From the IMG/VR virus record IMGVR_UViG_3300025896_000023: 64,000 nucleotides of DNA, one strand, 5' to 3'. The translations under genes and the position numbers were made by a program. The first letter of the stretch is position 1. The number at the start of each line of letters is the position of its first letter. This DNA comes from a virus (lineage: Duplodnaviria > Heunggongvirae > Uroviricota > Caudoviricetes). This document shows positions 1-62,255 of the stretch, one piece after another. Below the pieces are notes generated by a model that saw only the letters and a program-made list of their open reading frames with translations, did not search any database and was not told the DNA's origin.

Positions 1-190
1 AATATGATGTTAAATTTCTTTTTGAAAAAGATGGTATTAAAATATATCGTTTTTATAATGAAGGTAGATACCATTATTTCACAACAAATGGCGAAACAAT
101 GACTTCACAGGTATCTAATAAAACATCGTACGAGGACAACATTCAGTAAAAATAAATCACATAAAGTTTTTTTATGTCGGATAAAAGGTT

Positions 191-223
191 TATATTTACA
201 TTATAATTAAAACAGATATAAAA
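191..223 (+). promoter_or_regulatory. conserved promoter-like module (TATATTTACATTATAATTAAAACA...ATG)
   Basis: Core copy upstream of cca-like gene. Confidence 0.5.
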
Positions 224-3152: not shown

Positions 3153-3230
3153 CAAAAAATTAACACTTATTTTTTTCAAGTATTAAATATTATAGTTATA
3201 TTTACATATCTAATTTAAACAAATAAAATC
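3145..3230 (+). promoter_or_regulatory. class-B upstream unit: AAAAATTAACAAAAAATTAACAC tandem half-sites plus variant promoter core TATAGTTATATTTACATATC
   Basis: Half-sites overlap the upstream stop codon. Confidence 0.4.
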
Positions 3231-4205: not shown

Positions 4206-4241
4206 ATAAAGATATATAATAAATAAATAAAGATTAATAAA

Positions 4242-4712: not shown

Positions 4713-4796
4713 AATATTTCTTAAAAATATAATATATCTATTAATATGAATGATATGTTAGACTAAATTAGATATATAAAAAAAAATAATAATAAT

Positions 4797-5237: not shown

Positions 5238-5274
5238 TTTTAAAATATTTTATTAATTCTAAAAAATTCATTAA

Positions 5275-6234: not shown

Positions 6235-6977
6235 AAATAGAAGTAGTAACATTTGTAAATATATCTACAAATTATGCACGCAAATATAAAAAATGTATAG
6301 ATTCTCAGAGAGAATGGGCCCAATTACATGGAATGGGATATACTGTATTTGAATATGCTGCTAAAAATGATTTGCAAAATGATTGGGAATTTTATATTAA
6401 TTATTTTAATATAATAAGGGAAGATGGAATCTATTATCTTGGAATATTACCAAGTGTTATGATTTTAAATAAACATGAAAATCCATTTGAAAATATTCAA
6501 TGGGGTGGAATTCTTGTCAACTCATACGTAAATCCATCATTCTATATGTCGCCAAACATAACTGATGAATATTTATTAGAAACTATAATGTTTTCTAAAT
6601 TATTTAAAGATACTCCTACTAGTTTACCAATGTTAGGACTTAGAATTATTATTTGTAAGACAATTGATTATGTTGTAGAATATAAAGATTTGCATGTTGG
6701 CATGCCATATATTCAGGGTCTTTCATCTGGAATGGAAATGCACTTAGATACAAATAAAGAAGGTATTGTTGAAGTTTCGTATAGTCCTAGATTGTTAGAA
6801 GATGATCAGTTCTATCGACCTGGAGATTTTGCAGTTAATATTCCATTTAAAAATAACTTTGGGAAAGCATATATTATAGAATTCTCTCGTATTAAAAAAC
6901 AGATAGATAAGATAATGAAATTAGGAAAGAGTTTGGAACAAGATTTATCATATGAAAAAGGCAATTTGGGTTCTTGA
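6231..6977 (+). CDS. hypothetical protein
   Basis: 248 aa ORF overlapping neighbours by 4 nt, an operon-like arrangement. Confidence 0.4.
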   Translation: MKIEVVTFVNISTNYARKYKKCIDSQREWAQLHGMGYTVFEYAAKNDLQNDWEFYINYFNIIREDGIYYLGILPSVMILNKHENPFENIQWGGILVNSYVNPSFYMSPNITDEYLLETIMFSKLFKDTPTSLPMLGLRIIICKTIDYVVEYKDLHVGMPYIQGLSSGMEMHLDTNKEGIVEVSYSPRLLEDDQFYRPGDFAVNIPFKNNFGKAYIIEFSRIKKQIDKIMKLGKSLEQDLSYEKGNLGS

Positions 6978-7821
6978 AAATATTAAAGAATCTGACGATT
7001 TCTATGATGAATTAACAATTATTATGTTAATTGCAAGTATATGCTCATGGAAAAGGCATAATATTACATTTGATGAATTGCATTGCGATTCTAGAACACT
7101 AGAAAAATTAAAAGAATTTAATATATTACATCTATGGGATAACGTAGATACTTCGATCGTTGATTCCTATACATCCATTAATAAAACTACATTTTGGGCA
7201 AGTTCAAAGGTTAGAGTCCTACTTGCACAAAATGAGTGTGTTTCATTAATTGACACTGATTTTATTTCATATGCTCCTATTTATAATATTGGAAATGAAT
7301 ATCCTATAATCTATTCGCATGATGAAGATGGATTACAGTGGTATTGTGGAACAGAAGATCCCTATATTAAGAAAATAAAAGGATTGCCTATATGGCTAAT
7401 CCATACTCCAAATAAATCAGCGCTCAATGTATGTTATTTAAGTTTTAATGATATAGAAATCCAACAGGAATATGCAAAATATGCCGTGAAATGCATGGAA
7501 GAATTAAGTATGTATGATGCTCCAGTAGGGGTGCACATGGTCTGGGCAGAGCAAAAAATACTCAAACAGATTATTACACATCACCAAATCGAGTGTAAGA
7601 CATTGATTAAGAATGTATTCTCATGTGAATCTAAGAACTTTAAAGAAGATCTTTTTAACTATTCAGGGGAATGGACATATAATGAATCTTTAACTAAATA
7701 TTATCATGTTGGATTTGATAAAAAAGATCTTAGAAACGAAGGATCCGATTTAAAATTCTTATATATAATTTGTAGAGATTATATAGATATAGAGTCACTT
7801 AAACTTAAATTCACAAAATGA
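6952..7821 (+). CDS. DXD-motif protein, paralog family member B
   Basis: AIWVL...SWKRHNITF...; DXD-like VSLIDTDFIS; same architecture as members A and C. Confidence 0.4.
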   Translation: MKKAIWVLENIKESDDFYDELTIIMLIASICSWKRHNITFDELHCDSRTLEKLKEFNILHLWDNVDTSIVDSYTSINKTTFWASSKVRVLLAQNECVSLIDTDFISYAPIYNIGNEYPIIYSHDEDGLQWYCGTEDPYIKKIKGLPIWLIHTPNKSALNVCYLSFNDIEIQQEYAKYAVKCMEELSMYDAPVGVHMVWAEQKILKQIITHHQIECKTLIKNVFSCESKNFKEDLFNYSGEWTYNESLTKYYHVGFDKKDLRNEGSDLKFLYIICRDYIDIESLKLKFTK

Positions 7822-8789
7822 AAGCAATACATGTAAATTGGACTGCACCTTTTTTTAATAAAGAAAGACTAAGAGGACATGGATTTTCTATAACTAAAGA
7901 TTTAAATTCAATAGAGTATAGTATTCCCGACTATCAAATATTATATACAATTCTATCAATACTTAGATGGAAATTACATAATGGACCTATAAAATTATAC
8001 ACAGATTCAATAGGTTTAAATTATTATAAAACAATCGGAATAGATGCATTATACGATGATATCAATACTGAGTTTCTAGATAATTTAACGGGAGTCGATG
8101 CAGCGTATTACTGGACTTCTGGCAAAATACAAGCACTTCGAAACGAAAATGAACCATTTGTGTTTTTAGATCAGGATTTTATAGTTAGAGGAACCATACC
8201 AGAATCCTTTTATTATGGAGATATTGGAATTGGACACTGGGAAATTCCAAGAGGTAATTATTATTTTACTAAAAAACAGTGGGAGTCTGAAATTAAACAT
8301 GTTTCATTTCCTATAAATTATAATTGTAATGCATATTCACCTAATACATCTTTTGTTTATTTTGGATCTAATTCTGCCATTGATGAATACGTAAACGCAC
8401 ATAAAGAATTAATAAACTCCGGAGATAATGAAGTACCTGAGTGGTTTTGGTTAGCAACTGACCAAGGTATTTTAGGACATATTATTAGGGAACATGAATA
8501 TCACACAAATACATTAACAAATAGAATATTTTTAGCAGATAGCGATTATGCTAAAGTAGAAGATAGAAAGTTTGGATATTCTGAACAATGGTACTATCCA
8601 ACTGAATTTGATTCTAGTAAAAATGAATTAGAATGGGAACACGTTTGGTTAGCCAAGGTGGTATATGCGTCAAATCCTTTATTATTATCGAATGACTGCA
8701 CACGATTTTATGAAGAGATAAAAAACGTTTTTCCAGAATATTCTTATATTTTAAAAGAAACAAGATTAAAACAATATGAAAATAGTTAG
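7818..8789 (+). CDS. DXD-motif protein, paralog family member C
   Basis: IHVNWTAP...LRWKLHNGPIKLYT...DALYDDINTE; DXD-like FVFLDQDFIV. Confidence 0.4.
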   Translation: MKAIHVNWTAPFFNKERLRGHGFSITKDLNSIEYSIPDYQILYTILSILRWKLHNGPIKLYTDSIGLNYYKTIGIDALYDDINTEFLDNLTGVDAAYYWTSGKIQALRNENEPFVFLDQDFIVRGTIPESFYYGDIGIGHWEIPRGNYYFTKKQWESEIKHVSFPINYNCNAYSPNTSFVYFGSNSAIDEYVNAHKELINSGDNEVPEWFWLATDQGILGHIIREHEYHTNTLTNRIFLADSDYAKVEDRKFGYSEQWYYPTEFDSSKNELEWEHVWLAKVVYASNPLLLSNDCTRFYEEIKNVFPEYSYILKETRLKQYENS

Positions 8790-9564
8790 AGTTCTTTGGG
8801 GTAATAGTGATACTACATGGAATGAAATTCCTGAAAAACCACTATTCGATAATGAAATAGTATATGTATGGGGAACTGAAAATCAGGCAAGATTAATTTC
8901 TAGAGGATATAATACAATTATATTAGGACCTTATATCACACAACCAGAATACAGCAACATATATACTCATTTCGTGCATAAATTACATGCTCTTTCCGTT
9001 GCTGAAAAGGATTTCGAAGAATATCTATTTTTGGATTGGGATGTTAATATTGTAAAAAAAATAGATGACCAGTTCTGGGATTTAATAAGAAGCAATGGAC
9101 CTATACAGATTCCAACGTATAGTTATCCTAAAGGATATGAAAGTGTTGTATCAAAATTCTTATTAGATAATCCTGAAAATGAAAAGGTTAAGAATTTAGA
9201 TCCTAACATTATTAAATGGATTAATGTACAAAATACAATGTTAGAGAAATATAGCTGGGATTTTGAGGATATTAATGTTGTTCCTAATTTCTGTTTTTTT
9301 TATTCAAATGGTACAAATGCAATATCTAAACTTATGGAAATATATCGTAAATACAATATTAAAACATGTATTGAAGAATTTTGTATGTTTATTTTTGCAA
9401 ACTGCACACTTGAAGATTTTATAAATACATATGAACCTCTGGTTATTAATGGATGTAGAGATGATTATCATCATTTTGATAATTTAGATGACTATTCAAT
9501 ACTAAAAATAAATCAGCATGTAAAAACCATAATATATAAAAATATTTATCTAGTACATCAATAA
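8776..9564 (+). CDS. hypothetical protein (possible distant member of the same family; LFLDWDVN)
   Basis: 262 aa ORF in the same block. Confidence 0.35.
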   Translation: MKIVRVLWGNSDTTWNEIPEKPLFDNEIVYVWGTENQARLISRGYNTIILGPYITQPEYSNIYTHFVHKLHALSVAEKDFEEYLFLDWDVNIVKKIDDQFWDLIRSNGPIQIPTYSYPKGYESVVSKFLLDNPENEKVKNLDPNIIKWINVQNTMLEKYSWDFEDINVVPNFCFFYSNGTNAISKLMEIYRKYNIKTCIEEFCMFIFANCTLEDFINTYEPLVINGCRDDYHHFDNLDDYSILKINQHVKTIIYKNIYLVHQ

Positions 9565-9565
9565 T

Positions 9566-10279
9566 ATGCATTTTAAAGATCCAATAATAGAGTCAGGCAT
9601 CCAAGATATTAAATATCTAGCACCAATTCCAATATATCAACATCAATTTGAAGATGATGATTTCAGTAATAGAGTTTATGCATTTGGGTTTGAAACCTTA
9701 AATGAAAAACAAAAACAAATGGGACAAGAACTTCCAGGAAGATTTGATGATGAGAGGCAAGAAACATTCCAAGTATGGTATGACAGAGCAGATCAATGGG
9801 TAGAGGAAAATGAATTACAACCAATTGGCAGCAGATTTTGGACACCTCCTAATGATTTTTTAGATATTGATAATGTGGATGTTCATATAATTAGGCAAAG
9901 AATTGAAAATGGATATTTACATTTATTGAATTCTCTTGGATATTCACATGAATCAACTCCAATAATTACTGAAAGTTGGATGCAATATTATGATCCATAT
10001 AGCGGAAGAGGACATAATGCACATAATCACTGTAGATGGAGTGCAAGTGAAGCAAAACCAATGATGTTTAGTGGAGGTTACTACCTATCAGATGGATTAC
10101 CAATTAAAGACCATCCATACTCTGGAGTATTTGCGTTTCATATTAGAGGTATGAAATATTATATAAGACCCAAAAAAGGAATGTTAATTATTTGGCCTTA
10201 TGATATTATTCATTCTGTTGAGCCTTTTTATGGAGCAGAGCACCGATGTGTAATTAACTTTAATATACAACTCAAGTAA
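9566..10279 (+). CDS. putative 2OG-Fe(II) oxygenase-like protein
   Basis: C-terminal GMLIIWPYDIIHSVEPFYGAEHRCVINFN resembles the distal His plus Arg strand of phage 2OG oxygenases; HNAHNH upstream. Confidence 0.4.
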   Translation: MHFKDPIIESGIQDIKYLAPIPIYQHQFEDDDFSNRVYAFGFETLNEKQKQMGQELPGRFDDERQETFQVWYDRADQWVEENELQPIGSRFWTPPNDFLDIDNVDVHIIRQRIENGYLHLLNSLGYSHESTPIITESWMQYYDPYSGRGHNAHNHCRWSASEAKPMMFSGGYYLSDGLPIKDHPYSGVFAFHIRGMKYYIRPKKGMLIIWPYDIIHSVEPFYGAEHRCVINFNIQLK

Positions 10280-10839
10280 TGGAAAATATAGGATATGATA
10301 TTTTCGTTTTTAGAAAAAGTATTCCTTTTCAAACAATAGAATTATGTAATACTATTAGAAATGAATCCAACTCTGATGGAAGAATCGATGCTAACGATAT
10401 TTTAATGGAAAGCTTTAATAGTTTTATTAAAGAATTATATAATGATGTGATTCTAGATTATTTAAAAATATATGATGTAGAGAACGGAATAGGTTATAAC
10501 TCAAGTATTGATACCGTTAATGAAATTAAGGAGTATGTTAGTCCATTATGGCGAGAAGTATTTTTATTAAAATATTCTGAAACATATCCCATCTCTTATG
10601 AAAAAAACGTGCATTGGGATTTTTCTATGTTTACTATTGTCGGATGTTTAAACGATGAATTTGAAGGAGGTGAACTTGAATTTCCTAGGCAAGAAATAAG
10701 TGTTTTATTAAAAAAAGGAGATATTGTGATTTTTCCAGGAGGGTTAACCCATCCGCATTTTGTGAATAAAGTTACCAAGGGAGAGAGATATGTTATCGTT
10801 GGTCAAACCCTATATCCTGGCTTAAATAAAATAAAATAA
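10279..10839 (+). CDS. 2OG-Fe(II) oxygenase (prolyl-4-hydroxylase-like)
   Basis: VHWD (HxD) ... GGELEFP ... GDIVIFPGGLTHPHFVNKVTKGERYVI (distal His, Arg). Confidence 0.55.
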   Translation: MENIGYDIFVFRKSIPFQTIELCNTIRNESNSDGRIDANDILMESFNSFIKELYNDVILDYLKIYDVENGIGYNSSIDTVNEIKEYVSPLWREVFLLKYSETYPISYEKNVHWDFSMFTIVGCLNDEFEGGELEFPRQEISVLLKKGDIVIFPGGLTHPHFVNKVTKGERYVIVGQTLYPGLNKIK

Positions 10840-11886
10840 ATGAAAGTATATTGTACATTACCATTTACCAGAATGAAAATAAATTCTGATGGAGAATATC
10901 ATTCATGTTGCCACCAGAATATACATTATGGAAATATAATAAAGGAGGATATTACAATAAAGGAAGCATTTGATAAAGACATTATCAAAGATATTCAAAA
11001 TTCTATTTTAGGAAATAATTTACACGATGCTTGTAATACCCCTAGGTGTCCATTTTATTCAAAACGAAATGAATTAGATACGCTATTCATGAACGATGTA
11101 GAATATACGGACCAACCTATTGATTTTGAACTTTCATTACCATCTTCGCATTGTAATATAGGAGGAACAGACCCTACACCTGATACTGCATGCCCAATGT
11201 GCCCTAGGGCATCTGTGTCTTTTATTGAGCATGAACCATCCATTGATTTAATAGAAATAGTATTGGATAAATTAAAACCTATTATGAATAAGGTTAAAAT
11301 ACTAAATATACAGGGAATCGCTGAACCGTTTTGGAAAGGAAAAGTATTTGAAATTTTAAATAAATTAGATTTTAAAAAATATAGAAATGTTATACATTTT
11401 TGGAGTTTTACAAATGGAACAGTATTTGGAGATAAAATACAAGATAAATTTATAGAAATGGTAGGATTTGCTAGTTTAGGATTTTCAATAGATGCAGCAA
11501 CACCCGAAACGTATATTAAAGTAAGAAAATTAAATTACTTTAAAACTATTGAGAGAAATTTAAAAAAATATTTCGAAAAAACAAAGAATCTTAAAAATGA
11601 AAATGGTTGGTTACATTCGTTTACGACATATAATATCAATATGATAAATGTGCATGAAATGGAACAAATGGTCAGGTGGTCACATGGGATAGGGGCAGAT
11701 AGAACAGAATTTACATTAACATTTATAAGTGCTCCTGAAATTCCAATAGGTACCGAAAATATATGTAATAAAGATAATTGGCATATATTTTGGGAAGGAC
11801 AACAAAGGGCGATGCATGTTGCAAAGGAATTAAATTATAGTGTAACATTTTATGTTCCATTTCATGGAGGATTTTTAAATAATTAA
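10840..11886 (+). CDS. Cys-rich hypothetical protein
   Basis: 348 aa; CTLPF...HSCCHQ, CNTPRCPF, ACPMCP; no CxxxCxxC radical-SAM motif. Confidence 0.45.
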   Translation: MKVYCTLPFTRMKINSDGEYHSCCHQNIHYGNIIKEDITIKEAFDKDIIKDIQNSILGNNLHDACNTPRCPFYSKRNELDTLFMNDVEYTDQPIDFELSLPSSHCNIGGTDPTPDTACPMCPRASVSFIEHEPSIDLIEIVLDKLKPIMNKVKILNIQGIAEPFWKGKVFEILNKLDFKKYRNVIHFWSFTNGTVFGDKIQDKFIEMVGFASLGFSIDAATPETYIKVRKLNYFKTIERNLKKYFEKTKNLKNENGWLHSFTTYNINMINVHEMEQMVRWSHGIGADRTEFTLTFISAPEIPIGTENICNKDNWHIFWEGQQRAMHVAKELNYSVTFYVPFHGGFLNN

Positions 11887-11888
11887 TT

Positions 11889-12791
11889 ATGAGAGATTTT
11901 ATAGTTGCCAGGTCTTGGCGCACGTTTGACAAACAACAATTAGTTGCACTTACTGAAATATGTAAAATAATTGTTCAACAAGAAAGATATATTGATAATG
12001 CCGAAATACATTTAAATATTAATAATCCAAATCATGAAATGCAGGCAAAGGCATTTCAATTACTTCCCCCTGGTGTTAGTTTATTTTTTTATGATAACGC
12101 TGAACTTGAACAATACGTAAGGGATTGTGGAATTGAACCAGACATAGAAAAGTACAGAGAATGGGAATGGATATACCATATCATATTACACCATAAATTA
12201 TATCATGAAAGAGGTAATGATTACGTTTTAACATATGATGATGATATTTTATTTAATGATGTTGATTTTTCAGATATAGTACATTTCGTAACTACTAAAA
12301 TTCCATTTAGTATTGCGGATCAATTTGTTGATGCAGATAAACCAATGATGGGTAAACTTATTGAAAAATTTGGCAATGAATTATTTGAAAATTATTATCG
12401 ATGTCATGGTAATGATAAATCTGGAAACTCTGGTTTTATGGGATTTAACAACAGTACGATGTCTCTGTTTACTTCTAAGGAGGATTTTCAATGGTTGATT
12501 AATTCATTTATATATAAGAGATGGGACCACATGACGATGCAGGGTACATCATGGGACACCTATAAGGTATTAATACAGGAACAATCATTACTATCAATAT
12601 TAAATAGAGCGTATTCAAATACGGAACATATCATACTATTACATAGTGATGGGTATATTTTGACAACCGACATGGAATTAATGAAACAGAGTAAAATAAT
12701 GCATTTTATTTCAACTACAAAATATTCCGAAGAATACACGCAACTTATTGAGAATAAGTATACTATATTACAAGAGGTATTTAAAATATAA
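11889..12791 (+). CDS. hypothetical protein
   Basis: 300 aa ORF followed by a terminator hairpin. Confidence 0.45.
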   Translation: MRDFIVARSWRTFDKQQLVALTEICKIIVQQERYIDNAEIHLNINNPNHEMQAKAFQLLPPGVSLFFYDNAELEQYVRDCGIEPDIEKYREWEWIYHIILHHKLYHERGNDYVLTYDDDILFNDVDFSDIVHFVTTKIPFSIADQFVDADKPMMGKLIEKFGNELFENYYRCHGNDKSGNSGFMGFNNSTMSLFTSKEDFQWLINSFIYKRWDHMTMQGTSWDTYKVLIQEQSLLSILNRAYSNTEHIILLHSDGYILTTDMELMKQSKIMHFISTTKYSEEYTQLIENKYTILQEVFKI

Positions 12792-12820
12792 ATTGTTAAT
12801 AACTTTCTTTGAAAATAAGT

Positions 12821-12851
12821 AGCCAAACATTTTTTTGTTTGGCTTTTTTTG
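12821..12851 (+). terminator. rho-independent terminator
   Basis: AGCCAAACA-TTTTTT-TGTTTGGCT then TTTTTTTG. Confidence 0.6.
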
Positions 12852-12854
12852 TTT

Positions 12855-12893
12855 AGATTTACATTATAATTAAAACAAATAAAAAACACCATT
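12855..12893 (+). promoter_or_regulatory. promoter-like module copy (variant TAGATTTACATTATAATTAAAACAAA)
   Basis: Follows the terminator at 12821. Confidence 0.45.
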
Positions 12894-13298
12894 ATGATGA
12901 ATTCAATCCAAAAAGAAGTTAAAATAGTTTTAAGTCCATCAAGCGAACAATATGCTAAAATTCGTGCAGAGTATTTTGAAAAAACAGGAAGCGATAATTA
13001 CTATGATAATCGTGATCTTTTTGACCAAATGGTTAAAGATGTTCAAACAGAATGGATATTGGAAAATGTAACATTTGGTAATGCACAATGTTTTGCTGAA
13101 CCAATTCGTATCGCACACCCTGATCAATGTGTTTCATTATATAATGACGGTAATGGAAGTTTCATTGGTAACACGTCTTGGAATGACCAGATTAAAATGT
13201 TTTGGGAGTACCCAGTATATTCAATCGAAGGAGCAGAAATCATGCTGGCACGTCAACAAGAGGCCGAGGAGCAAGAATTAATTGCTTCTTGGGAGTAA
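12894..13298 (+). CDS. hypothetical protein
   Basis: 134 aa ORF downstream of a promoter-like copy. Confidence 0.45.
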   Translation: MMNSIQKEVKIVLSPSSEQYAKIRAEYFEKTGSDNYYDNRDLFDQMVKDVQTEWILENVTFGNAQCFAEPIRIAHPDQCVSLYNDGNGSFIGNTSWNDQIKMFWEYPVYSIEGAEIMLARQQEAEEQELIASWE

Positions 13299-13405
13299 TT
13301 AATCTATAAGAATTGAAACAAAAAATCACAAGTGCAATATAACTTAAGTCTTTAAGCCTGAGGGTAAAATCATTAATCCCGGGAAACTTTTTAAATCTAT
13401 AAATT

Positions 13406-14385: not shown

Positions 14386-14386
14386 A

Positions 14387-14468
14387 ATTGTTAATAACTT
14401 TTTGCAAATAAGTTTTCACGGGTCAAATTTAATAGCTATATTTACATTATAATTAAAACAAATATCAT
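14387..14468 (+). promoter_or_regulatory. full composite module: AATTGTTAATAACTTTTTG palindrome, GTTTTCACGGGTCAAAT box, TATATTTACATTATAATTAAAACA core
   Basis: All three blocks present. Confidence 0.55.
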
Positions 14469-16916: not shown

Positions 16917-17282
16917 ATGGAATCAATATTAGATAAAAAGATAGATTTTAAGGATGCGATTGATTCAATTAAAAGAGTACTTGGAATCTTATTTCCATGG
17001 GTTAGTCTTTTTAAAAGTATTAAAAATGAAACGTTTTATTCAAACACATTATATGATATTAAACAGGGGCATCCTGTTATAATTAGATCTGAAAAGATAA
17101 TGTCTCAATATGAAAAAATGTATGGCAGAATAGATTCGCAATTCGCATTAGATACTGTTAAGATGGGAATTAAGCGTGAAATCTGTGATGAAATCATGAG
17201 AAGTGATTTATTTGAATGGCAAATCGAAGGTACTACAATGGGAACCAAAGTTGCTGCAAGAATAATTATTAATAAGTTTTAA
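16917..17282 (+). CDS. hypothetical protein
   Basis: 121 aa ORF. Confidence 0.4.
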   Translation: MESILDKKIDFKDAIDSIKRVLGILFPWVSLFKSIKNETFYSNTLYDIKQGHPVIIRSEKIMSQYEKMYGRIDSQFALDTVKMGIKREICDEIMRSDLFEWQIEGTTMGTKVAARIIINKF

Positions 17283-17316
17283 AAATAAGTATTAAAACAT
17301 TTTTTATATCGAAACT

Positions 17317-17354
17317 TTTAGTTATATTTACATATAAATTAAAACAAACATACA
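17317..17354 (+). promoter_or_regulatory. promoter-like module copy (variant TATATTTACATATAAATTAAAACAAACA)
   Basis: Upstream of Prs-like gene. Confidence 0.45.
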
Positions 17355-18233
17355 ATGATAATATTAGATTTAGTTAACCCGGAAAAATCGCAAATCAAGT
17401 ACAAAATTAGTCAATTCCCAGATGGTCAACAAACAGTAGACCTTACAGAATGGAATGACTTATTGAGATATACTGATGCTGTAAAAATTAGCTCACGTTT
17501 AAATAGTTTTAAAGATTTAGAATTAATTATTTGTGCAACCACTGCGATCAGAAATATTAAACCTACCAGAGAAATTATCCTTTACGTTCCTTATTTTGTA
17601 GGTGCTCGTTCAGATCGCAAATTTAGCGAAGGTGGAGTTAATTATCTAAAACAGGTAATTTGTCCAATTATTAATTCTTTAAATTTTATAACTGTAATTA
17701 CGTTAGATCCACACTCTGATGTATTGGAAGCATGCTTGAATAACTATGAAAAATTAGATAATCACATACTAGCAAAATATGCACTTTCAAATATAGATAA
17801 TAAAAAAGATGCTCAAGAAAGAATTTGTTTAGTAAGCCCAGATGCTGGAGCATATAAGAAAATCTTTGATGTTGCTAAAAAGTTTGGAATTCAAAATGTT
17901 GTTACTGCAAATAAAGTAAGAGACATGAAAACTGGTAATATTCTTAAGACCGAGGTTCCAAACCTACCAGGAATTGTTGGAGATGATTTACAATATGTAA
18001 TCATCGATGATATTTGCGATGGTGGTAGAACATTTAATGAACTAGCAAAGGCAATTAGAGAACAACGAAGTGATGCAAAGATCTATTTAGTAGTAACCCA
18101 TGGTATCTTTAGCGCTGGATTTAAAGAATTATCACAATACTTCGAAGGAATTTATACAACAAATAGTTATCGAGAAGTTGCAGATAATGAATATGAAGAA
18201 AAAACAAACACAATAGTATTTAAAGTAATATAA
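17355..18233 (+). CDS. ribose-phosphate pyrophosphokinase (Prs) family protein; candidate ADP-ribose pyrophosphokinase
   Basis: PRPP-binding loop VIIDDICDGGRT; SPDAGAYKKIFDVAKKFG; length 292 aa; directly downstream of a promoter module. Confidence 0.6.
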   Translation: MIILDLVNPEKSQIKYKISQFPDGQQTVDLTEWNDLLRYTDAVKISSRLNSFKDLELIICATTAIRNIKPTREIILYVPYFVGARSDRKFSEGGVNYLKQVICPIINSLNFITVITLDPHSDVLEACLNNYEKLDNHILAKYALSNIDNKKDAQERICLVSPDAGAYKKIFDVAKKFGIQNVVTANKVRDMKTGNILKTEVPNLPGIVGDDLQYVIIDDICDGGRTFNELAKAIREQRSDAKIYLVVTHGIFSAGFKELSQYFEGIYTTNSYREVADNEYEEKTNTIVFKVI

Positions 18234-21274: not shown

Positions 21275-21356
21275 AAATTAACATAAAATTAACACTCGGG
21301 ATTTTCTAGTCTCGAGTTTTTTGTTTATATTTACATTATAATTAAAACAATAACAA
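21275..21356 (+). promoter_or_regulatory. class-B unit: AAAATTAACATAAAATTAACAC, terminator hairpin, TTTTTTGTTTATATTTACATTATAATTAAAACAA
   Basis: Upstream of Fpg/Nei-like gene. Confidence 0.45.
21295..21322 (+). terminator. rho-independent terminator
   Basis: CTCGGGA-TTTTCTAGT-CTCGAG then TTTTTTG. Confidence 0.5.
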
Positions 21357-22471: not shown

Positions 22472-23272
22472 ATGAAAAACGATGCATTAGGCGATCGCAT
22501 GAAAGAGTTCTACGAAGATAGAACCAGAATCAAACTTCCAAGAAGAACTTACACAATTATTCGAATTGATGGTAAGGCATTCCACACTTACACTAAAGGA
22601 TTAACAAGACCATTTGATGAGGGTCTAATTGAAGACATGAATGCAACTACTGCATATTTATGTAAAAACATCCAAGGCGCTAAATTCGGTTATGTGCAAT
22701 CAGATGAGATTAGTTTAGTCTTAACAGACTTTGATGACTTAGGAACTCATGCTTGGTTCGACAACAACTTACAGAAAATGGTAAGTGTTGCTGCTTCTAT
22801 GGCAACTGCAGAATTCAATAAACTTAGGTTAATGCGATTCATGAAAGATAGCATGATCTTTTTAGAACCTGAAGATATTGGAAAATTCAAAATGGCTGAG
22901 TTCGACGCTAGAGCATTTCAAATTCCATTTATCGATGAGGTAGAAAACTATTTTATTTGGAGACAACAGGATGCTGTAAGAAATTCAATCTCTTCAGTTG
23001 CACAAAGTCTTTATAGTACTACAGAATTACATGGTAAAAAAACAAGTGATATGCAAGAATTGATCTTCCAGAAGGGAATTAACTGGAATGATTATGATTT
23101 TCGTTTGAAACGAGGCGCAATAATCGGAAAGGTAGAAGTTGTAACTACAACTAGCGATGTTAATTACACGAGAAATAAATGGCAAGTTATTGAAACTCCA
23201 ACATTTACTCAAGATAGATTTTTTATTAAAGGATTACTAAACACTAAAAAGAAAGAAAATGAATTGGTTTAA
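22472..23272 (+). CDS. Thg1-like 3'-5' nucleotidyltransferase (tRNA-His guanylyltransferase family)
   Basis: DRMKEFYED...LPRRTYTIIRIDGKAFHTYTKGLTRPFDEGL...YVQSDEISLVL matches Thg1 catalytic core blocks. Confidence 0.65.
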   Translation: MKNDALGDRMKEFYEDRTRIKLPRRTYTIIRIDGKAFHTYTKGLTRPFDEGLIEDMNATTAYLCKNIQGAKFGYVQSDEISLVLTDFDDLGTHAWFDNNLQKMVSVAASMATAEFNKLRLMRFMKDSMIFLEPEDIGKFKMAEFDARAFQIPFIDEVENYFIWRQQDAVRNSISSVAQSLYSTTELHGKKTSDMQELIFQKGINWNDYDFRLKRGAIIGKVEVVTTTSDVNYTRNKWQVIETPTFTQDRFFIKGLLNTKKKENELV

Positions 23273-23774: not shown

Positions 23775-23868
23775 AATTGTTAATAACTTTTTGAAAAGAA
23801 TTCACTAAAAGTTTTCAATATATCGAATATTATAGTTATATTTACATTATAATTAAAACAAACAAAAT
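23775..23868 (+). promoter_or_regulatory. full composite module copy
   Basis: AATTGTTAATAACTTTTTG ... GTTTTCAATAT ... TATATTTACATTATAATTAAAACAAACAAA. Confidence 0.55.
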
Positions 23869-27470: not shown

Positions 27471-28106
27471 ATGGAACCAGAAAAAGACATATTTGATCAG
27501 TGGGCTGAAGAACGTGAAAAAAAATCATGGATAGTAAGAAAGTTAGAATACATTCCAATTTGGTGGAATCATGATGGCAGATATCTACATAAAGAAATTA
27601 AGGTAGGAATCAAAAACATTTGGTATTGGTTGCCTATTATTTGGAAAGATCGTAATTGGGATTCTCATTATATCTTTGAAATCATGATTCATAAAATCAA
27701 AGCACAATCCAAATATATCGGAGAACGCGGTATGCATACACGATCCGAAAGGGATGCAGAAATTATGATGACATGTGTTCGTCTAATGAAATTAATTCAA
27801 GATGATTTTTATAGTTCTGAGTATTCAGATTATCATACAACAAAGCATTGGTTTGAAGACGTACCCGGAAAGGAAGGATATAGTTCATGGGAGTCTAAAT
27901 TAATGGAAGAAAACTTTGATGATTTCTTTAAAAAATATCCATTAATCTATAAAAGAGTTATCAAAGGGGAAGGACCATTTAATTTAGAAGGGCGCGACGA
28001 TGACAAACAAGTCATTGCAATGAATATTGGCCATATTAATCATAATAGAGCAAGTAAATTGTTATTTAACTTAATGGAAGAAAATATCCAACGATGGTGG
28101 GATTAA
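27471..28106 (+). CDS. hypothetical protein
   Basis: 211 aa. Confidence 0.4.
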   Translation: MEPEKDIFDQWAEEREKKSWIVRKLEYIPIWWNHDGRYLHKEIKVGIKNIWYWLPIIWKDRNWDSHYIFEIMIHKIKAQSKYIGERGMHTRSERDAEIMMTCVRLMKLIQDDFYSSEYSDYHTTKHWFEDVPGKEGYSSWESKLMEENFDDFFKKYPLIYKRVIKGEGPFNLEGRDDDKQVIAMNIGHINHNRASKLLFNLMEENIQRWWD

Positions 28107-28188
28107 ATTGTTAATAACTTTATAAAGATAAGTTTTTACAATTCAAATATTATAGTTATATTTACATTATAATTAAAACAACATATTA
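28105..28188 (+). promoter_or_regulatory. full composite module copy
   Basis: AATTGTTAATAACTTTATAAAG ... TTTTTACAATTCAAATATTATAGTTATATTTACAT. Confidence 0.55.
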
Positions 28189-29254: not shown

Positions 29255-29280
29255 GACATCATATATAAGATTAAATTAAA

Positions 29281-29302
29281 GGTCCCTATAGGGACCTTTT
29301 TT
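29281..29302 (+). terminator. rho-independent terminator
   Basis: GGTCCCTATAGGGACC then TTTTTTC. Confidence 0.65.
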
Positions 29303-29393
29303 CTGTTAATAACTTTTTGAAAACATGTGTAAATAAATTTTCATGGTTCAAATATTATAGTTATATTTACATTATAATTAAAACAAACAAATT
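29303..29393 (+). promoter_or_regulatory. full composite module copy immediately after a terminator
   Basis: CTGTTAATAACTTTTTG ... TTTTCATGGTTCAAATATTATAGTTATATTTACAT. Confidence 0.55.
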
Positions 29394-33326: not shown

Positions 33327-33408
33327 AAAAATTAACAAAACTTTAACACCTGAGATTATTTAGTCTCAGGTTTTTTGTTTATATTTACATTATAATTAAA
33401 ACAAACAA
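33327..33408 (+). promoter_or_regulatory. class-B unit: AAAAATTAACAAAACTTTAACAC, terminator, TTTTTTGTTTATATTTACATTATAATTAAAACAAACAA
   Basis: Third class-B copy. Confidence 0.45.
33349..33376 (+). terminator. rho-independent terminator
   Basis: CCTGAGA-TTATTTAG-TCTCAGG then TTTTTTG. Confidence 0.65.
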
Positions 33409-33725: not shown

Positions 33726-34289
33726 ATGAATTGCCTGATAGTTATAGCGCATCCAGATCGTACGTCCTTTGAGAATACAAAACTCATAAAGACTTTGAAA
33801 ATGCGATATACAAAGGATGGACATAAGGTAAATATAGTTGATCTTTATCTTGATGATTATAATCCATCTTCATTTGTTGGAGATCTTTCAAATATTAATG
33901 ATAACGCATTTGCAAAATCATATAGACATTTAATAAAAACGTCAAACCATATTTGGATTATTTCACCAACAAGATGGTTATCAATGTCTCCTTTAGTCGA
34001 AGGATTTATTGACCAGGTATTTATCAGTGGGTTTGCATTTAAGGACGGTAGAGGACTTCTAGGTGATAGAAAACTTGGAGTAGTATTAACATCTACTTCA
34101 CCTAATAATGTAAGATGGAAGACCTTAGATATAATGTGGGTAAGACTTAAGTTAATGGTATTTCCTCAAGTATTTAAGTTTAAAAACATTAAAATATATC
34201 AAATTTGGAATGTTAAAAAATCTACAAACCTAGAACTCAATACACACCTACAGAGAATAAATCAAATTGTTAATAACTTTTTGAAATAA
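33726..34289 (+). CDS. flavodoxin-like fold NAD(P)H-dependent oxidoreductase-like protein
   Basis: MNCLIVIAHPDRTSFENTKL...VNIVDLY pattern; C-terminus encodes the conserved palindrome element. Confidence 0.4.
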   Translation: MNCLIVIAHPDRTSFENTKLIKTLKMRYTKDGHKVNIVDLYLDDYNPSSFVGDLSNINDNAFAKSYRHLIKTSNHIWIISPTRWLSMSPLVEGFIDQVFISGFAFKDGRGLLGDRKLGVVLTSTSPNNVRWKTLDIMWVRLKLMVFPQVFKFKNIKIYQIWNVKKSTNLELNTHLQRINQIVNNFLK

Positions 34290-34347
34290 ATGTTTCACAG
34301 TTCAAATATTATAGTTATATTTACATTATAATTAAAACAAACAAATT
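34265..34347 (+). promoter_or_regulatory. full composite module copy (palindrome block lies inside the upstream gene's last codons ...NQIVNNFLK)
   Basis: Upstream of DNA ligase. Confidence 0.55.
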
Positions 34348-37112: not shown

Positions 37113-37289
37113 ATGGAAGATTTATTAAACCAAATCGTAGCAGCAGTTGATTCAGTAAGAGAAGACGCAGCTAAATTTGAAGAAAAAGGAAATGGTGCTG
37201 CTGGAACTAGGGTTCGTAAGGCAATGCAAACTATTAAGACCCTTGCACAGGATGTAAGAGTTCAAGTATCTGAGGCTAAAAAAGTCTAA
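37113..37289 (+). CDS. histone H1/Hc1-like small basic DNA-binding protein (58 aa, not in ORF track)
   Basis: MEDLLNQIVAAVDSVREDAAKFEEKGNGAAGTRVRKAMQTIKTLAQ matches the Bacteroidota histone-H1 family pattern. Confidence 0.6.
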   Translation: MEDLLNQIVAAVDSVREDAAKFEEKGNGAAGTRVRKAMQTIKTLAQDVRVQVSEAKKV

Positions 37290-47710: not shown

Positions 47711-47754
47711 AAGTTTTCACGCGTAAAAAACTTTAGTTATATTTACATTATAAT
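47711..47754 (+). repeat. 44-bp perfect direct repeat AAGTTTTCACGCGTAAAAAACTTTAGTTATATTTACATTATAAT, copy 1 (promoter-bearing)
   Basis: Identical to 48252..48295. Confidence 0.7.
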
Positions 47755-47763
47755 TAAAACAAC
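47711..47763 (+). promoter_or_regulatory. composite module copy (GTTTTCACGCG box plus core)
   Basis: Also copy 1 of the 44-bp repeat. Confidence 0.5.
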
Positions 47764-48267
47764 ATGATGATACAGGAACATATTGAACTCTACTTTAACA
47801 TTTTTAAAGCAACACAGTCGGCATATAATACATCTGGTGTAAATAGAACCTATTTGATTAGAGGATTTTCACAATCACAAGGTGCATTTTACGCAGATAG
47901 TTGGAGGGTTATAGGTATTACACAGGCAGCATTAGATTCATTTGCATCCGTAGATTTTGCGAGAATTCCAAATAGAAAAGATGCAGTTACAGTAGAGAGA
48001 GCCCACGTACACCAAAGAAATGCATGGTTATCTGAAATGTTTGAAATGGAATGGAGTTGTGCAAATGAATGGTGGGCATTTATTTATGAGAGAGATGTAT
48101 GCATCTTGGCTACAAATTCTGAAAACCGTGCATCTGATAGTACTGGAGCAATTTTAGAAATAGCACATGAAATTCCGCAAGGTATGGAATATTTTACATC
48201 AACATTTATTGGTTGTAAATATCGTAAAGGTGTTGAAAGGGTTCTATTGGAAAGTTTTCACGCGTAA
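47764..48267 (+). CDS. hypothetical protein flanked by 44-bp perfect direct repeats
   Basis: 167 aa; stop codon lies inside the downstream repeat copy. Confidence 0.45.
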   Translation: MMIQEHIELYFNIFKATQSAYNTSGVNRTYLIRGFSQSQGAFYADSWRVIGITQAALDSFASVDFARIPNRKDAVTVERAHVHQRNAWLSEMFEMEWSCANEWWAFIYERDVCILATNSENRASDSTGAILEIAHEIPQGMEYFTSTFIGCKYRKGVERVLLESFHA

Positions 48268-48295
48268 AAAACTTTAGTTATATTTACATTATAAT
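48252..48295 (+). repeat. 44-bp perfect direct repeat, copy 2
   Basis: Identical to 47711..47754. Confidence 0.7.
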
Positions 48296-48311
48296 ATTAA
48301 ATGATATATCC
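48252..48311 (+). promoter_or_regulatory. composite module copy with truncated leader (ATAATATTAAATG)
   Basis: Copy 2 of the 44-bp repeat. Confidence 0.45.
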
Positions 48312-49035: not shown

Positions 49036-49605
49036 ATGAAAGTAATATTCCTAGATAATGATGGCGTGATTTGTCTCCTTAGTAATTGGGGTAGTAGAGT
49101 CAAGAAATGGCCAAAGTATAGATCTGCCAATCCAGAATCAAGTCCAAACCTAAAGGATGCACCTGTAGAAGTACGTTTTGATAATTTTGATAAAAAGGCA
49201 ATTAATATACTAAATAAAGTACTTGAAGTTACGGGTGCTGAAATCGTTGTAAGTTCTGATTGGAAATTGCATGCAACCTTAGAGGAACTTGGAGATTATT
49301 ACATTGAGCAAGGTATCATAAAAAGACCTATTGCAATTACGCCAAATCTTGAAGATTTTGATCCTGAAACAAATGATCTTTTTATGTGGAAGCGATGGTT
49401 AGAACGCAAAAGAATCCTTGAAATTAATAAGTATCTTGAACTACATCCTGAAATTACACAATGGGTTGCAGTTGATGACCTAAATATGAGTCCTCAGTCA
49501 AATGGTGGACATGGACTTGCACATTTTGTCTTAACACCAAGAAGTAATGAAGGTATTAAGCAATCAAACATATTTGATGAAATTGTTAATAACTTTATTA
49601 AATAA
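49036..49605 (+). CDS. HAD-superfamily hydrolase-like protein
   Basis: N-terminal FLDNDGVI (DxDG motif I); C-terminus encodes the palindrome element. Confidence 0.4.
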   Translation: MKVIFLDNDGVICLLSNWGSRVKKWPKYRSANPESSPNLKDAPVEVRFDNFDKKAINILNKVLEVTGAEIVVSSDWKLHATLEELGDYYIEQGIIKRPIAITPNLEDFDPETNDLFMWKRWLERKRILEINKYLELHPEITQWVAVDDLNMSPQSNGGHGLAHFVLTPRSNEGIKQSNIFDEIVNNFIK

Positions 49606-49662
49606 ATGAGTACATGTCAAATATAATAGTTATATTTACATTATAATTAAAACAAATAATAT
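49581..49662 (+). promoter_or_regulatory. full composite module copy (palindrome block encodes ...DEIVNNFIK of the upstream gene)
   Basis: AATTGTTAATAACTTTATTAAATAAATGAGTACATGTCAAATATAATAGTTATATTTACAT. Confidence 0.55.
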
Positions 49663-49971
49663 ATGTCAACTGAAAAAGTAGAGATTACAGTAATTAAAAG
49701 TAAACCTTTAAAATCAACCACGAGTGTTGAAGGTACCCTTGTGCAATGTAGTAATAATAAATGGTATGCCATTCTAACAATGAGACCTAGCAGAAATCCA
49801 TGGTTTATGAAATCCGTGTCTGCTACTTCAACAGGACGCACTGATATTAGTGATGAGCAATTCTCAATGAAATGTGCTGGAACCATGAGACCAAATCCAG
49901 AAGATGGTGTGCAAGTTTTATTAAATGCACTAAATGGAATTGAAGTTCCAAAGGATAAAATAACATATTAA
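49663..49971 (+). CDS. hypothetical protein
   Basis: 102 aa after a promoter module. Confidence 0.4.
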   Translation: MSTEKVEITVIKSKPLKSTTSVEGTLVQCSNNKWYAILTMRPSRNPWFMKSVSATSTGRTDISDEQFSMKCAGTMRPNPEDGVQVLLNALNGIEVPKDKITY

Positions 49972-50052
49972 ATTGTTAATAACTTTTTGCAGATAAGTTT
50001 CACAGGTCAAGGTTAATAGTTATATTTACACTATAATTAAACAAATATAAAA
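49971..50052 (+). promoter_or_regulatory. full composite module copy (core variant TATATTTACACTATAATTAAACAAA)
   Basis: AATTGTTAATAACTTTTTGCAG ... GTTTCACAGGTCAAGG ... Confidence 0.55.
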
Positions 50053-51446: not shown

Positions 51447-51508
51447 AATTGATATTAATCCTGGTGAAAATTGTTCGTAACTTTTTTAGCCGGGAATTTT
51501 TTATGTCA

Positions 51509-51551
51509 AATATTATAGTTATATTTACATTATAATTAAAACAAACAAACC
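51509..51551 (+). promoter_or_regulatory. promoter-like module copy (core plus AAAACAAACAAACC leader)
   Basis: No clear palindrome block upstream. Confidence 0.45.
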
Positions 51552-52112: not shown

Positions 52113-52194
52113 AATTGTTAATAACCTTTTAGCTAGGATTTTTTTTTGTCAAATATAATAGTTATATTTACATTATAATTAAAACAAACAAATT
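52113..52194 (+). promoter_or_regulatory. full composite module copy (palindrome variant AATTGTTAATAACCTTTT)
   Basis: Upstream of 52195 gene. Confidence 0.5.
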
Positions 52195-52504: not shown

Positions 52505-53113
52505 ATGATAAACAACCTAGAAATAATCAAACCTCTCCTAAACTTTGAAAACAAAGGAGACTTTTATATGCTTTATGTATTTAAACGCAAAAAAGATCAA
52601 CCTCCAGAGGAACGTGATAATCACCAATCAGTAAGAACTATTAAGACTTATTGTATTGAGAGTATTGAACACCTAGAACGTAGGTGGAGTGAAGTACAGG
52701 ACCTGTGCGAGATGTTTAAGGCTAGAGCATATATTCATGTTCAAAAACAAAATCATCAGGACGTGTCACTTAATATGATGGTTACGCTGGCACAAAGAAT
52801 TCAGGATGGTAACGCAAATCAAAAAGGTTTATTTGATTCTGTGGTTGGACAAATCAAAACCCATGAAAAAAGATGGATTGTAGATATTGATACTAAAGAT
52901 GAACAATTTGATAGAGAAGTTCAATTATTTATTAATACTAAATGTAGACCCTTTGGCGCGAAAATTATTGCTAACATCAGAACTAAAAATGGAAATCATT
53001 TAATCACAGAAAGATTTGATGTTAAAACTTTTAGTGAAAAATTTCCTGAGATAGACATTCAACGTAAAAATCCAACACTTTTATATTATCCAAATAGCTT
53101 AGAAGATTGTTAA
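52505..53113 (+). CDS. hypothetical protein
   Basis: 202 aa. Confidence 0.4.
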   Translation: MINNLEIIKPLLNFENKGDFYMLYVFKRKKDQPPEERDNHQSVRTIKTYCIESIEHLERRWSEVQDLCEMFKARAYIHVQKQNHQDVSLNMMVTLAQRIQDGNANQKGLFDSVVGQIKTHEKRWIVDIDTKDEQFDREVQLFINTKCRPFGAKIIANIRTKNGNHLITERFDVKTFSEKFPEIDIQRKNPTLLYYPNSLEDC

Positions 53114-53187
53114 TAACTTTTTGAAATAAATGTTTCATGTTTCAAATATTATAGTTATATTTACATTATAATTAAAACAAATACATT
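53105..53187 (+). promoter_or_regulatory. full composite module copy
   Basis: GATTGTTAATAACTTTTTGAAATAAATGTTTCATGTTTCAAATATTATAGTTATATTTACAT. Confidence 0.55.
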
Positions 53188-56359: not shown

Positions 56360-56361
56360 CA

Positions 56362-56454
56362 AATTGTTAACAACTTTTTGAAAATAATTGCTTAAAGATT
56401 TTCATGGTTCAAAGTTTATAGTTATATTTACATTATAATTAAACAAACAATATT
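56362..56454 (+). promoter_or_regulatory. full composite module copy (palindrome variant AATTGTTAACAACTTTTTG) directly after the tRNA-like region
   Basis: Shares AAATAATTGCTTAAAGATTTTCA with the 57567 copy. Confidence 0.5.
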
Positions 56455-57566: not shown

Positions 57567-57640
57567 AAAATAATTGCTTAAAGATTTTCACATGTCAGGT
57601 TTTTTGTCTATATTTACACTATAATTAAACAAACAATATT
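57567..57640 (+). promoter_or_regulatory. composite module copy (AAATAATTGCTTAAAGATTTTCACATG ... TATATTTACACTATAATTAAACAAACAATATT)
   Basis: Closest relative of the 56362 copy. Confidence 0.5.
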
Positions 57641-62200: not shown

Positions 62201-62255
62201 GTTTTCACGGATCAAATATTATAGTTATATTTACACTATAATTAAAACATATACT
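62201..62255 (+). promoter_or_regulatory. composite module copy (GTTTTCACGGATCAAATATTATAGTTATATTTACACTATAATTAAAACA)
   Basis: Upstream of glucosaminidase gene. Confidence 0.5.

Follow-up and report, generated by a model that had tools for sequence, protein, structure and literature searches.

The genomes of T4-type phages carry ~50 intergenic promoter-early stem-loop cassettes (PeSLs) each. These begin at the stop codon of the upstream gene in an AT-rich stretch (PMC2839356), cluster among ORFans and bring about the shuffling of modules (Arbiol et al. 2010, PMC2839356; Comeau et al. 2014, PMC4122927). In the Bacteroidota, promoters read by the primary sigma factor (sigma-ABfr) consist of a -33 element, TTTG, and a -7 element, TAnnTTTG, separated by 19 nt, the latter taking the form TAHHTTTG in Flavobacterium johnsoniae (Baez et al. 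2019, PMC6847099); in F. johnsoniae promoters the positions T-12, A-11, T-8, T-7, T-6 and G-5 hardly vary, and transcription starts 4-5 nt downstream (PMC6847099). Here we describe 21 copies of a composite intergenic module in a stretch of DNA from a virus of the class Caudoviricetes (IMG/VR record IMGVR_UViG_3300025896_000023); this whole stretch of 64 kb, with a GC content of 31%, is referred to as the window. We consider it probable that the modules are strong early promoters for the RNA polymerase of a Bacteroidota host, organized as promoter/terminator cassettes, and by comparative analysis they appear best explained as the counterpart, in Flavobacteria-type phages, of the known T4-like cassettes.

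The module core, TATATTTACA(TTATAATTAAAAC), occurs 21 times in the window, always on the + strand and always between genes. A scan with the 21-mer core, allowing ≤4 mismatches, found 20 matches on the + strand and none on the - strand, and a more degenerate 21st copy lies at 3197; the figure of about 21 copies given by an earlier reading of the window from its letters alone (the sequence-only reading) was thus exact. With ≤3 mismatches, the longer 29-mer matched 13 times in the window and not once in 100 dinucleotide-preserving shuffles. Placement was judged against a simple list of 126 genes on the + strand, with a coding share of 90% and an intergenic share of 10.1%. All 20 + strand occurrences of the box TATATTTAC are intergenic, and all three on the - strand lie within open reading frames (ORFs), so that the density of the motif inside coding regions is not similar to that outside them. 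The distance from the start of the core to the next ATG ranges from 26 to 40 nt and is exactly 32 nt in 13 of the 21 copies. Three cores (at 50021, 56423 and 57609) are one base shorter than the others, having TTAAAC for TTAAAAC, yet keep the 32 nt to the ATG by means of a longer leader, which suggests selection on the promoter-to-start-codon distance itself. We concluded that the repeats are one real, well-defined promoter class: they are confined to a single strand and to intergenic DNA, stand at a fixed distance from the ATG and are conserved in relatives, in agreement with the proposal of promoter-like units of one class just 5' of genes. The accompanying claim that they partition the window needs refining: they do not do so by themselves, and a second promoter-like class, of the ATATATAA type, is also present. 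After the degenerate module at 3197, ~9.5 kb (genes 3231-12791) is without a module.

The -7-type box reads TATATTT in 20 of the 21 window copies and TAGATTT in the other one; it agrees with five of the six nearly invariant F. johnsoniae positions, the sixth having A for G, and is followed by an invariant CA in all 21. The resemblance of TATATTTAC to the host-type TAnnTTTG was accordingly borne out, as a Bacteroidota -7-type element. Upstream, TTT occupies positions -23 to -21 from the core start in 18 of 21 copies, leaving a 19-nt spacer, and stands in the context TTTTC or TTTTA, without G. The GTTTTCAC box is the T-tract of the -33 type, lying upstream of the -7-type box with exactly 19 nt in between. 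It had been placed about 17 nt ahead of the core, which is right for the gap between the box proper and the core (~17 nt), but the box itself starts 25 nt upstream of the core start. The same arrangement was seen in a family set of 205 distinct TATATTTACA-anchored modules drawn from the window and related loci, in which T is found at -23, -22 and -21 in 99, 96 and 97% of cases, giving TTT-N19-TAnnTTT. Outside the anchor, the next most conserved positions are G-17, T-14, C-13, T-4, G-3 and T-1, followed by A-41/A-40 and T-48/T-47. The modules are therefore like Bacteroidota sigma-A promoters in having TA..TTT at -7, a T-tract 19 nt upstream, an AT-rich spacer and short leaders that lack a Shine-Dalgarno (SD) sequence and have A at -3 and -11 to -13, whereas they differ in having A and the invariant CA in place of G-5, TTTT(C/A) in place of TTTG, and flanks and a leader that are far more conserved.

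Sixteen of the 21 window copies also contain TATAAT inside the core. In a motif-independent sample of orthologues, made up of loci picked by DNA-ligase homology only, the module was present where ligase identity was 78-82% (L111-L123, truncated L129 excepted), with TATATTTACA and the GTTTT box kept but TTATAAT replaced by TATCTAAT, TATCAAAT or TATACAAAT. Even at 57-60% ligase identity, GTTTT...TATATTTA(C/A) was still present, and a TATATTTAC-type box was retained. Since the ligase promoters of the orthologous loci keep TATATTTAC but have other sequences in place of TTATAAT, TATAAT is not the recognition element. TATAAT was rejected as a -10 box on this ground and on the lack of a -35-like hexamer 16-18 nt upstream, where the sequence is AAATAT or GAGTTT. 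TTTACA was likewise rejected as a -35 box, since a -10 box is lacking at 17 nt downstream and transcription would begin inside the ORF. The closest relatives by this measure (84% ligase identity, L104-L110) have no module before the ligase gene; their upstream neighbor is also different (a tRNA or a protein gene), and homology begins at AAATTGTTAATAAC.

Downstream of the core, the leader AAACAAACAA occurs 10 times on the + strand and never on the - strand. Two of these occurrences (37101 and 43493) are outside modules, 12-13 nt ahead of an ATG, bearing out the statement that leader sequences recur without the promoter. The sequence-only reading had taken the leaders to be consistent with SD-less initiation, and the gene set as a whole fits that view: SD-like 4-mers precede only 3 of the 126 genes, against a background of 16.8%, A is found at -3 in 68% of genes and A is found at -11 to -13 in 63-69%. 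Depleted SD sequences together with A at -3 and at -11 to -13 are features described in F. johnsoniae (PMC6847099). One gene with a AAACAAACAA leader but no promoter core, at 37113-37289, encodes a 58-amino-acid (aa) protein assigned to Hc1 (chlamydial histone H1-like DNA-binding protein) in its precomputed Pfam record.

Farther upstream lies the palindrome block, which, with ≤3 mismatches, has 13 matches on the + strand of the window and none on the - strand, compared with 0.3 expected. Thirteen window copies carry AATTGTTAATAAC, eight of them at -48/-49 and five at -57 to -61 from the core. Across the family, TTGTTAATAAC starts at -39 (2 modules), -48/-49 (19) or -58 to -60 (71) and at no position between these; TTAAC is present at both -48 and -37 in 90 of the 205 modules, and its complement, GTTAA, marks the palindrome at -58/-57 or -47. 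The positions of the palindrome and TTAAC sites are separated by whole helical turns, which points to a protein that contacts RNA polymerase and reads one face of the DNA, be it the C-terminal domain of the alpha subunit (an UP-like element) or an activator. The 9-bp palindrome is one member of a wider, helically phased TTAAC/GTTAA set and could be an UP-like element just as well as the dimeric regulator site that had been suggested. In Escherichia coli, UP elements and class I activator sites are likewise A/T-rich elements upstream of the -35 equivalent whose positions shift by whole helical turns, but the module motif (GTTAATAAC/TTAAC) is unrelated to them in sequence, and the module site is putative.

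The palindrome also stands in a close relation to the end of the upstream gene. AATTGTTAATAAC begins 0-1 nt past the upstream stop codon in 6 of the 13 copies and contains the stop in one, and the palindrome overlaps the last codons of the upstream gene in three (34267, 49583 and the degenerate copy at 17266). The two C-termini that it had been said to dictate were confirmed (QIVNNFLK* for the gene ending at 34289 and EIVNNFIK* for that ending at 49605). A role as a universal stop signal was rejected, since the palindrome has stops in just one frame and is read through by three genes. When 30 window proteins were scanned against Pfam, no helix-turn-helix protein or regulator emerged as a candidate palindrome-binding protein, and the sole DNA-binding-like match among the scanned proteins was the 58-aa Hc1-like protein.

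A variant of the module combines the promoter with a terminator-like hairpin. In 67 of the 205 family modules, a stem of 9-11 bp with a loop of 4-6 nt is formed around the -33 T-tract and is followed by GTTTTTTGTT and then by the core. Within these hairpin modules the -33 TTT sits in the loop at a constant offset, and 25 different stem sequences keep their pairing through compensatory changes, for example, CCTGACA/TGTCAGG, CTCCAGA/TCTGGAG and GCCAAACA/TGTTTGGC. Three hairpins in the window overlap the promoter (modules 3, 6 and 10 in Table 1), and a fourth terminator-like hairpin adjoins the palindrome of the module with its core at 29362; the folding free energies (dG) of the window hairpins range from -11.9 to -13.3. 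To judge from these sequences, the hairpin-type modules are predicted overlapping terminator/promoter cassettes. The complementarity between AACTTTTT and AAAAAGTT in the box-type modules was weighed as a weak terminator but not used, the fold energies being -0.6 to -4.7; because both arms are themselves invariant motifs, no covariation test is possible for this pairing.

DNA and protein searches against cultured phages found no close cultured relative, from which it follows that the lineage is uncultured; the nearest DNA matches come from phages of Flavobacterium and Chryseobacterium. Two cultured jumbo phages of Chryseobacterium, MA9V-1 and MA9V-2 (213-218 kb), the structural-gene region of which (including the tail-sheath region) is distantly homologous to the family loci, have the same architecture in their early-type promoters, which are known from sequence. 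Common to these and the modules are the ATTTTCATATGTC box, an 11-nt gap, TA(T/A)ATTT(A/G), an A-rich leader, TTTAAC repeats and a hairpin variant; the MA9V promoters differ in having another core downstream of the box, no AATTGTTAATAAC palindrome and either G or A at -5. In MA9V-1, this architecture precedes small genes and, with the canonical box TATATTTG, the phage's own sigma-70-family gene, whereas the tail sheath gene and other large genes have ATATATAA/TATAAATA-like motifs after terminators instead. Two family loci (L094 and L004) show the same split between early and structural motifs before the tail sheath and neighboring genes, and the split is seen in the window as well. A sigma-70_r2 protein is encoded by MA9V-1 and its relatives; in a more distant relative, the canonical boxes TATCTTTG and TACATTTG stand before the sigma-factor gene and neighboring genes. 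The text of the MA9V-1 paper names RNA polymerase once, for the sigma factor, and does not contain the word "promoter" (PMC10537231). In the window, the second motif, ATATATAA, occurs 15 times on the + strand (11 of them intergenic) and 6 times on the - strand. Often an ATG follows at a distance of 25-38 nt, and the motif may define a late or phage-sigma class of promoters. It resembles the T4 late promoter TATAAATA.

The box is also found in a bacterial chromosome. A chromosomal contig of a Formosa sp. metagenome-assembled genome (MAG) (L133, JABHDE010000003.1; it carries purU and genes for an AsnC-type regulator and an epimerase) has TATATTTAC before three host genes, at 902, at 3273 and, on the minus strand, at 1792. 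One of these copies exactly reproduces the 23-nt core of the phage and lies 31 nt ahead of the ATG of a lipoprotein-like gene; it may represent either a normal host promoter form in the genus or a phage-derived promoter captured by the host.

The exact 23-mer core was found in 103 stretches on ~45 IMG/VR contigs, including contigs of 117, 145, 199 and 234-236 kb, the genes of which are ~70-85% identical to those of the window or not alignable to them. In relatives, module-bounded blocks stand in another order or are absent, and 34 of 132 non-colinear junction ends (26%) fall in module zones, which make up 6.9% of the window. Because the junctions are not independent of one another, this enrichment of modules at rearrangements is suggestive only. 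In the closest relative locus, L050, window positions 2367-13405 have no match, and the cassette found at 51520 in the window lies there between blocks matching 218-2326 and 13606 onwards.

These properties bring the modules close to the PeSLs of T4-type phages. Both are near-identical intergenic cassettes present in many copies amid accessory and ORFan genes (21 in 64 kb in the window); both have an AT-rich start at or near the upstream stop codon and a host-type early promoter (the strength of which is, for the modules, predicted); and both flank genes that differ between related phages. PeSLs often have a stem-loop terminator overlapping or between the promoter boxes; among the modules, a clear stem-loop is found in just 3-4 of the 21 window copies and in 33% family-wide. 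The modules differ in that their boxes are of the Bacteroidota -33/-7 type rather than TTGACA/TATAAT, that they add the helically phased AATTGTTAATAAC/TTAAC element and that their core identity is unusually long (23 nt). PeSLs form mini-circles by recombination, whereas the modules are compared with them by sequence, and the phage is not assigned to the T4 superfamily.

The following picture would account for these features. TATATTTA would serve as the -7 element (T-12 A-11 .. T-8 T-7 T-6, with A for G at -5) and the T-tract GTTTTCAC, 19 nt upstream, as the -33 element, and AATTGTTAATAAC and the TTAAC repeats, one helical turn apart at ~-47, -57 and -67, may act as an UP-like or activator-binding element. 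Transcription would start ~4-5 nt after the box, at the A in core position 13, and yield an SD-less leader of ~20 nt, ATAATTAAAACAAACAAATT, that is A-rich at -3 and at -11 to -14 relative to the start codon. In hairpin copies, where the -33 T-tract is in the loop and the U-tract doubles as the promoter spacer, a single cassette of ~60-100 nt would both end the upstream unit and start the next. The cassettes would head small units of accessory and ORFan genes, most transcription units of the accessory region would start at them, and probably they also provide homology patches for gene shuffling, as T4-type PeSLs do. The host is probably a member of the Bacteroidota, order Flavobacteriales. We favor the view that the module is read by host RNA polymerase with its primary sigma factor and the second motif, ATATATAA, by a phage sigma factor; host polymerase is preferred because of the placement of the MA9V-1 sigma gene behind TATATTTG, the split between the two motifs, the canonical boxes of the distant relative and the Formosa genes with TATATTTAC. 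The choice between host sigma factor and phage factor, which the sequence-only reading had left open, thus leans to the host enzyme, although this is not proof.

Several observations weigh against this interpretation. Position -5 is A in 21 of 21 copies whereas F. johnsoniae host promoters have a nearly invariant G there, and the -33 element is likewise without its G. A contiguous 23-nt identity across phages with 70-85% gene identity, and across otherwise dissimilar contigs, is more than a sigma factor usually requires and resembles phage-polymerase promoters. The window is part of a genome, and a phage sigma factor or RNA polymerase may be encoded elsewhere; MA9V-1 has a sigma factor. Seventeen of the 21 window copies are without a convincing terminator hairpin. 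The Formosa evidence comes from 8 kb of one MAG. When junction ends at gene boundaries are considered, 31% are in module zones versus 17% of boundaries with a module, a modest excess among junctions that are not independent.

The A at -5, the invariant CA and the identical 23-mer in divergent contigs would suit a phage transcription factor, either a sigma-70-family protein like that of MA9V-1 and its relatives or a remodeled host RNA polymerase, reading TAnnTTTACA together with the bases downstream and making the modules a middle, not an immediate-early, class of promoters. We regard this as unlikely, since the MA9V-1 sigma-factor gene itself stands behind the same architecture with the host box TATATTTG, the distant relative has canonical boxes before its own sigma-factor gene, a late phage sigma factor would most obviously target the separate ATATATAA-type motif, and TATATTTAC boxes precede Formosa host genes. 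Neither the window nor ~1 Mb of family loci, which are biased towards early regions, yielded a sigma homologue in a tblastn search with the MA9V-1 sigma factor, and scans of IMG/VR for sigma factors, run with the protein and with an alignment of seven sequences, gave no match in contigs that bear modules. A phage RNA polymerase, whether single subunit (T7/N4-like) or multisubunit (phiKZ-like), would explain the near invariance of a contiguous block from ~-4 to +22 of the core (23-27 nt in the window), as such enzymes recognize a contiguous block of ~20-25 bp, and ~20 co-oriented copies and jumbo-sized contigs (234-256 kb) would be in keeping with it. However, conservation falls into two parts, the T-tract being conserved separately at an unchanging distance of 19 nt and the spacer varying freely (hairpin or box); the middle of the block (TTATAAT) is variable in orthologues; the canonical host-type TATATTTG fills the same slot; the window, the largest ORF of which encodes the 521-aa NAMPT, contains no cognate polymerase; and the MA9V-1 paper mentions RNA polymerase for a sigma factor only (PMC10537231). 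This makes a phage polymerase very improbable.

We give hardly any credence to the idea that TATAAT is a sigma-70-type -10 box and that the host lies outside the Bacteroidota: the frequency of TATAAT in the window speaks for it, but there is no suitably spaced -35-like hexamer, the motif is replaced in the orthologous ligase promoters, the translation signals are of the Bacteroidota type, and the nearest cultured relatives infect Flavobacterium and Chryseobacterium. It is also most unlikely that the repeats are primarily mobile or recombinogenic DNA (homing sites or elements like miniature inverted-repeat transposable elements) whose promoter look is incidental. Module-bounded blocks are indeed reshuffled, homology often begins exactly at AATTGTTAATAAC, and the identical core is present in otherwise unrelated contigs and one host chromosome. 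Yet the modules are strictly co-oriented with genes, keep their 32-nt distance to the ATG despite the loss of a core base, lack terminal inverted repeats and target duplications and are conserved chiefly at promoter-element positions, and recombination at promoter cassettes fits a PeSL-like host promoter as well. A bolder proposal, which is tentative and which we would not expect to hold, is that the cassette goes beyond a host-type promoter: the invariant 23-nt core (with A at -5, CA and the conserved first bases of the transcript) and the phased GTTAATAAC/TTAAC sites would be read by a dedicated factor (phage injected, phage encoded or a host activator), and the cassette would move horizontally, as one unit, among phages of Flavobacteriia that are otherwise unrelated and into host chromosomes, as in the Formosa copy. 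If so, it would be a regulatory element that is itself mobile and has a trans-acting partner of its own.

Taken as promoters for host polymerase, the modules overturn no existing idea and are a well-supported, fairly ordinary finding. To our knowledge, hardly anything has been learned about transcription in phages of the Bacteroidota beyond the unusual polymerases of the crAss-like group. The module would offer a compact, conserved promoter-plus-leader part (with a terminator in some copies) for Flavobacteriia, of use in annotation and as a genetic tool, and a family-wide marker, spanning the ~45 IMG/VR contigs and the cultured MA9V-type jumbo phages, that separates early from late units. It would also be evidence that the PeSL design arose outside T4 and the Proteobacteria with a different sigma-recognition code, and its phased palindrome is a candidate regulator site. 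A full-text literature search for the motif strings returned nothing relevant.

Table 1. Positions of the 21 modules and of the second promoter-like motif in the window
Feature	Positions	Strand	Upstream elements	Core	Start codon and gene
Module 1	166..223	+	T-tract box	TATATTTACATTATAATTAAAAC at 191; leader	ATG 224 (CCA-adding enzyme-like gene)
Module 2	3172..3230	+		TATATTTACATATCTAATTTAAAC at 3197; degenerate downstream half	ATG 3231
Module 3	12791..12893	+	Palindrome block 12791; terminator hairpin 12818-12855, dG -12.8, overlaps -33	TAGATTTAC... 12854	ATG 12894
Module 4 (the copy first noted)	14386..14468	+	Palindrome block AATTGTTAATAACTTTTTG 14386-14404; GTTTTCACGGGTCAAAT 14412-14428 (GTTTTCAC box)	Core unit TATATTTACATTATAATTAAAACAAATAT 14437-14465	ATG 14469
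Module 5	17264..17354	+	Degenerate palindrome TTATTAATAAG 17266	TATATTTACATATAAATTAAAAC 17323	ATG 17355 (PRPP-synthetase-like gene)
Module 6, hairpin type	21278..21356	+	TTAAC repeats; hairpin + T-run 21294-21325, dG -11.9, ATTTTCTA in loop region	21326	ATG 21357 (Fpg-like gene)
Module 7	23775..23868	+	Palindrome block 23775 (offset -60); box	23837	ATG 23869
Module 8	28106..28188	+	Palindrome block 28106 from upstream gene's stop codon; GTTTTTAC box	28157	ATG 28189
Module 9	29278..29393	+	Terminator-like hairpin 29278-29307, dG -13.3, T-run into CTGTTAATAAC; ATTTTCAT box	29362	ATG 29394
Module 10, hairpin type	33332..33408	+	TTAAC repeats; hairpin + T-run 33348-33379, dG -12.8	33380	ATG 33409
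Module 11	34265..34347	+	Palindrome block 34265-34283 in upstream gene's last codons (QIVNNFLK*); box	34316	ATG 34348 (ATP-dependent DNA ligase)
Module 12	47713..47763	+	GTTTTCAC box; without palindrome	47738	ATG 47764
Module 13	48254..48311	+	GTTTTCAC box	TATATTTACATTATAATATTAAA 48279	ATG 48312
Module 14	49581..49662	+	Palindrome block 49581-49599 in upstream gene's last codons (EIVNNFIK*)	49631	ATG 49663
Module 15	49971..50052	+	Palindrome block 49971 from upstream stop codon; box	TATATTTACACTATAATTAAAC 50021	ATG 50053
Module 16	51469..51551	+	Variant block AATTGTTCGTAAC 51469; T-tract box	51520	ATG 51552
Module 17	52113..52194	+	Palindrome block 52113; T-tract box	52163	ATG 52195
Module 18	53105..53187	+	Block GATTGTTAATAAC 53105, internal TAA is upstream gene's stop; box	53156	ATG 53188
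Module 19	56362..56454	+	Variant block AATTGTTAACAAC 56362 right after tRNA-like 3' end; ATTTTCAT box	56423	ATG 56455
Module 20	57584..57640	+	ATTTTCAC box	TATATTTACACTATAATTAAAC 57609	ATG 57641
Module 21	62201..62255	+	GTTTTCAC box	TATATTTACACTATAATTAAAAC 62226	ATG 62256 (glucosaminidase-domain protein)
ATATATAA motif sites	2340, 4212, 4772, 9532, 37915, 43468, 57810, 62826 and others				

All credible genes of the window are on the + strand, together with five tRNAs, which were also the only hits of an Rfam search of the window at the gathering threshold. The predicted products are of the accessory or early type (CCA-adding enzyme, PRPP-synthetase-like protein, Fpg, Thg1, NAMPT, ATP-dependent DNA ligase, M42 peptidase, thymidylate synthase, a flavodoxin-like reductase, a HAD RNA-repair domain protein, an SPFH protein, a phosphoesterase, an exonuclease, an amidotransferase, a PD-(D/E)XK nuclease and a glucosaminidase-domain protein). 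There are no structural or replication core genes in the window, and the first genes behind modules mostly lack a Pfam match (9 of 10 in the scanned set). Genes for tRNA/RNA maintenance and NAD salvage are dense beside the tRNA cluster, encoding the CCA-adding enzyme, a Thg1-like guanylyltransferase, a HAD "Swiss army knife" RNA-repair domain protein, NAMPT and the PRPP-synthetase-like protein (224-964, 17355-18233, 22472-23272, 24123-25688 and 49036-49605).

A gene-free gap of 906 nt (55549-56361) contains four tRNA-like 3' ends, each consisting of a T-arm and acceptor (GGTTCGAnTCC...), near 55868, 55972, 56216 and 56338; the stretch 37590-37620 was noted alongside them. They were not called as tRNAs by either Rfam or ARAGORN: a permissive scan of 55.5-56.46 kb gave none, and ARAGORN with introns gave only implausible calls. 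The gap is 84-87% conserved in relatives, where it lies directly before the ligase module, and in the window the palindrome block starts right after the last tRNA-like 3' end. The only sizeable minus-strand ORF (41305-41652, 115 aa) is in a 397-nt gap in the region 41305-41712, and at 41659, 54 nt before the M42 peptidase gene, is a copy of TATATTTG, one of only three canonical intergenic TAHHTTTG boxes on the + strand.

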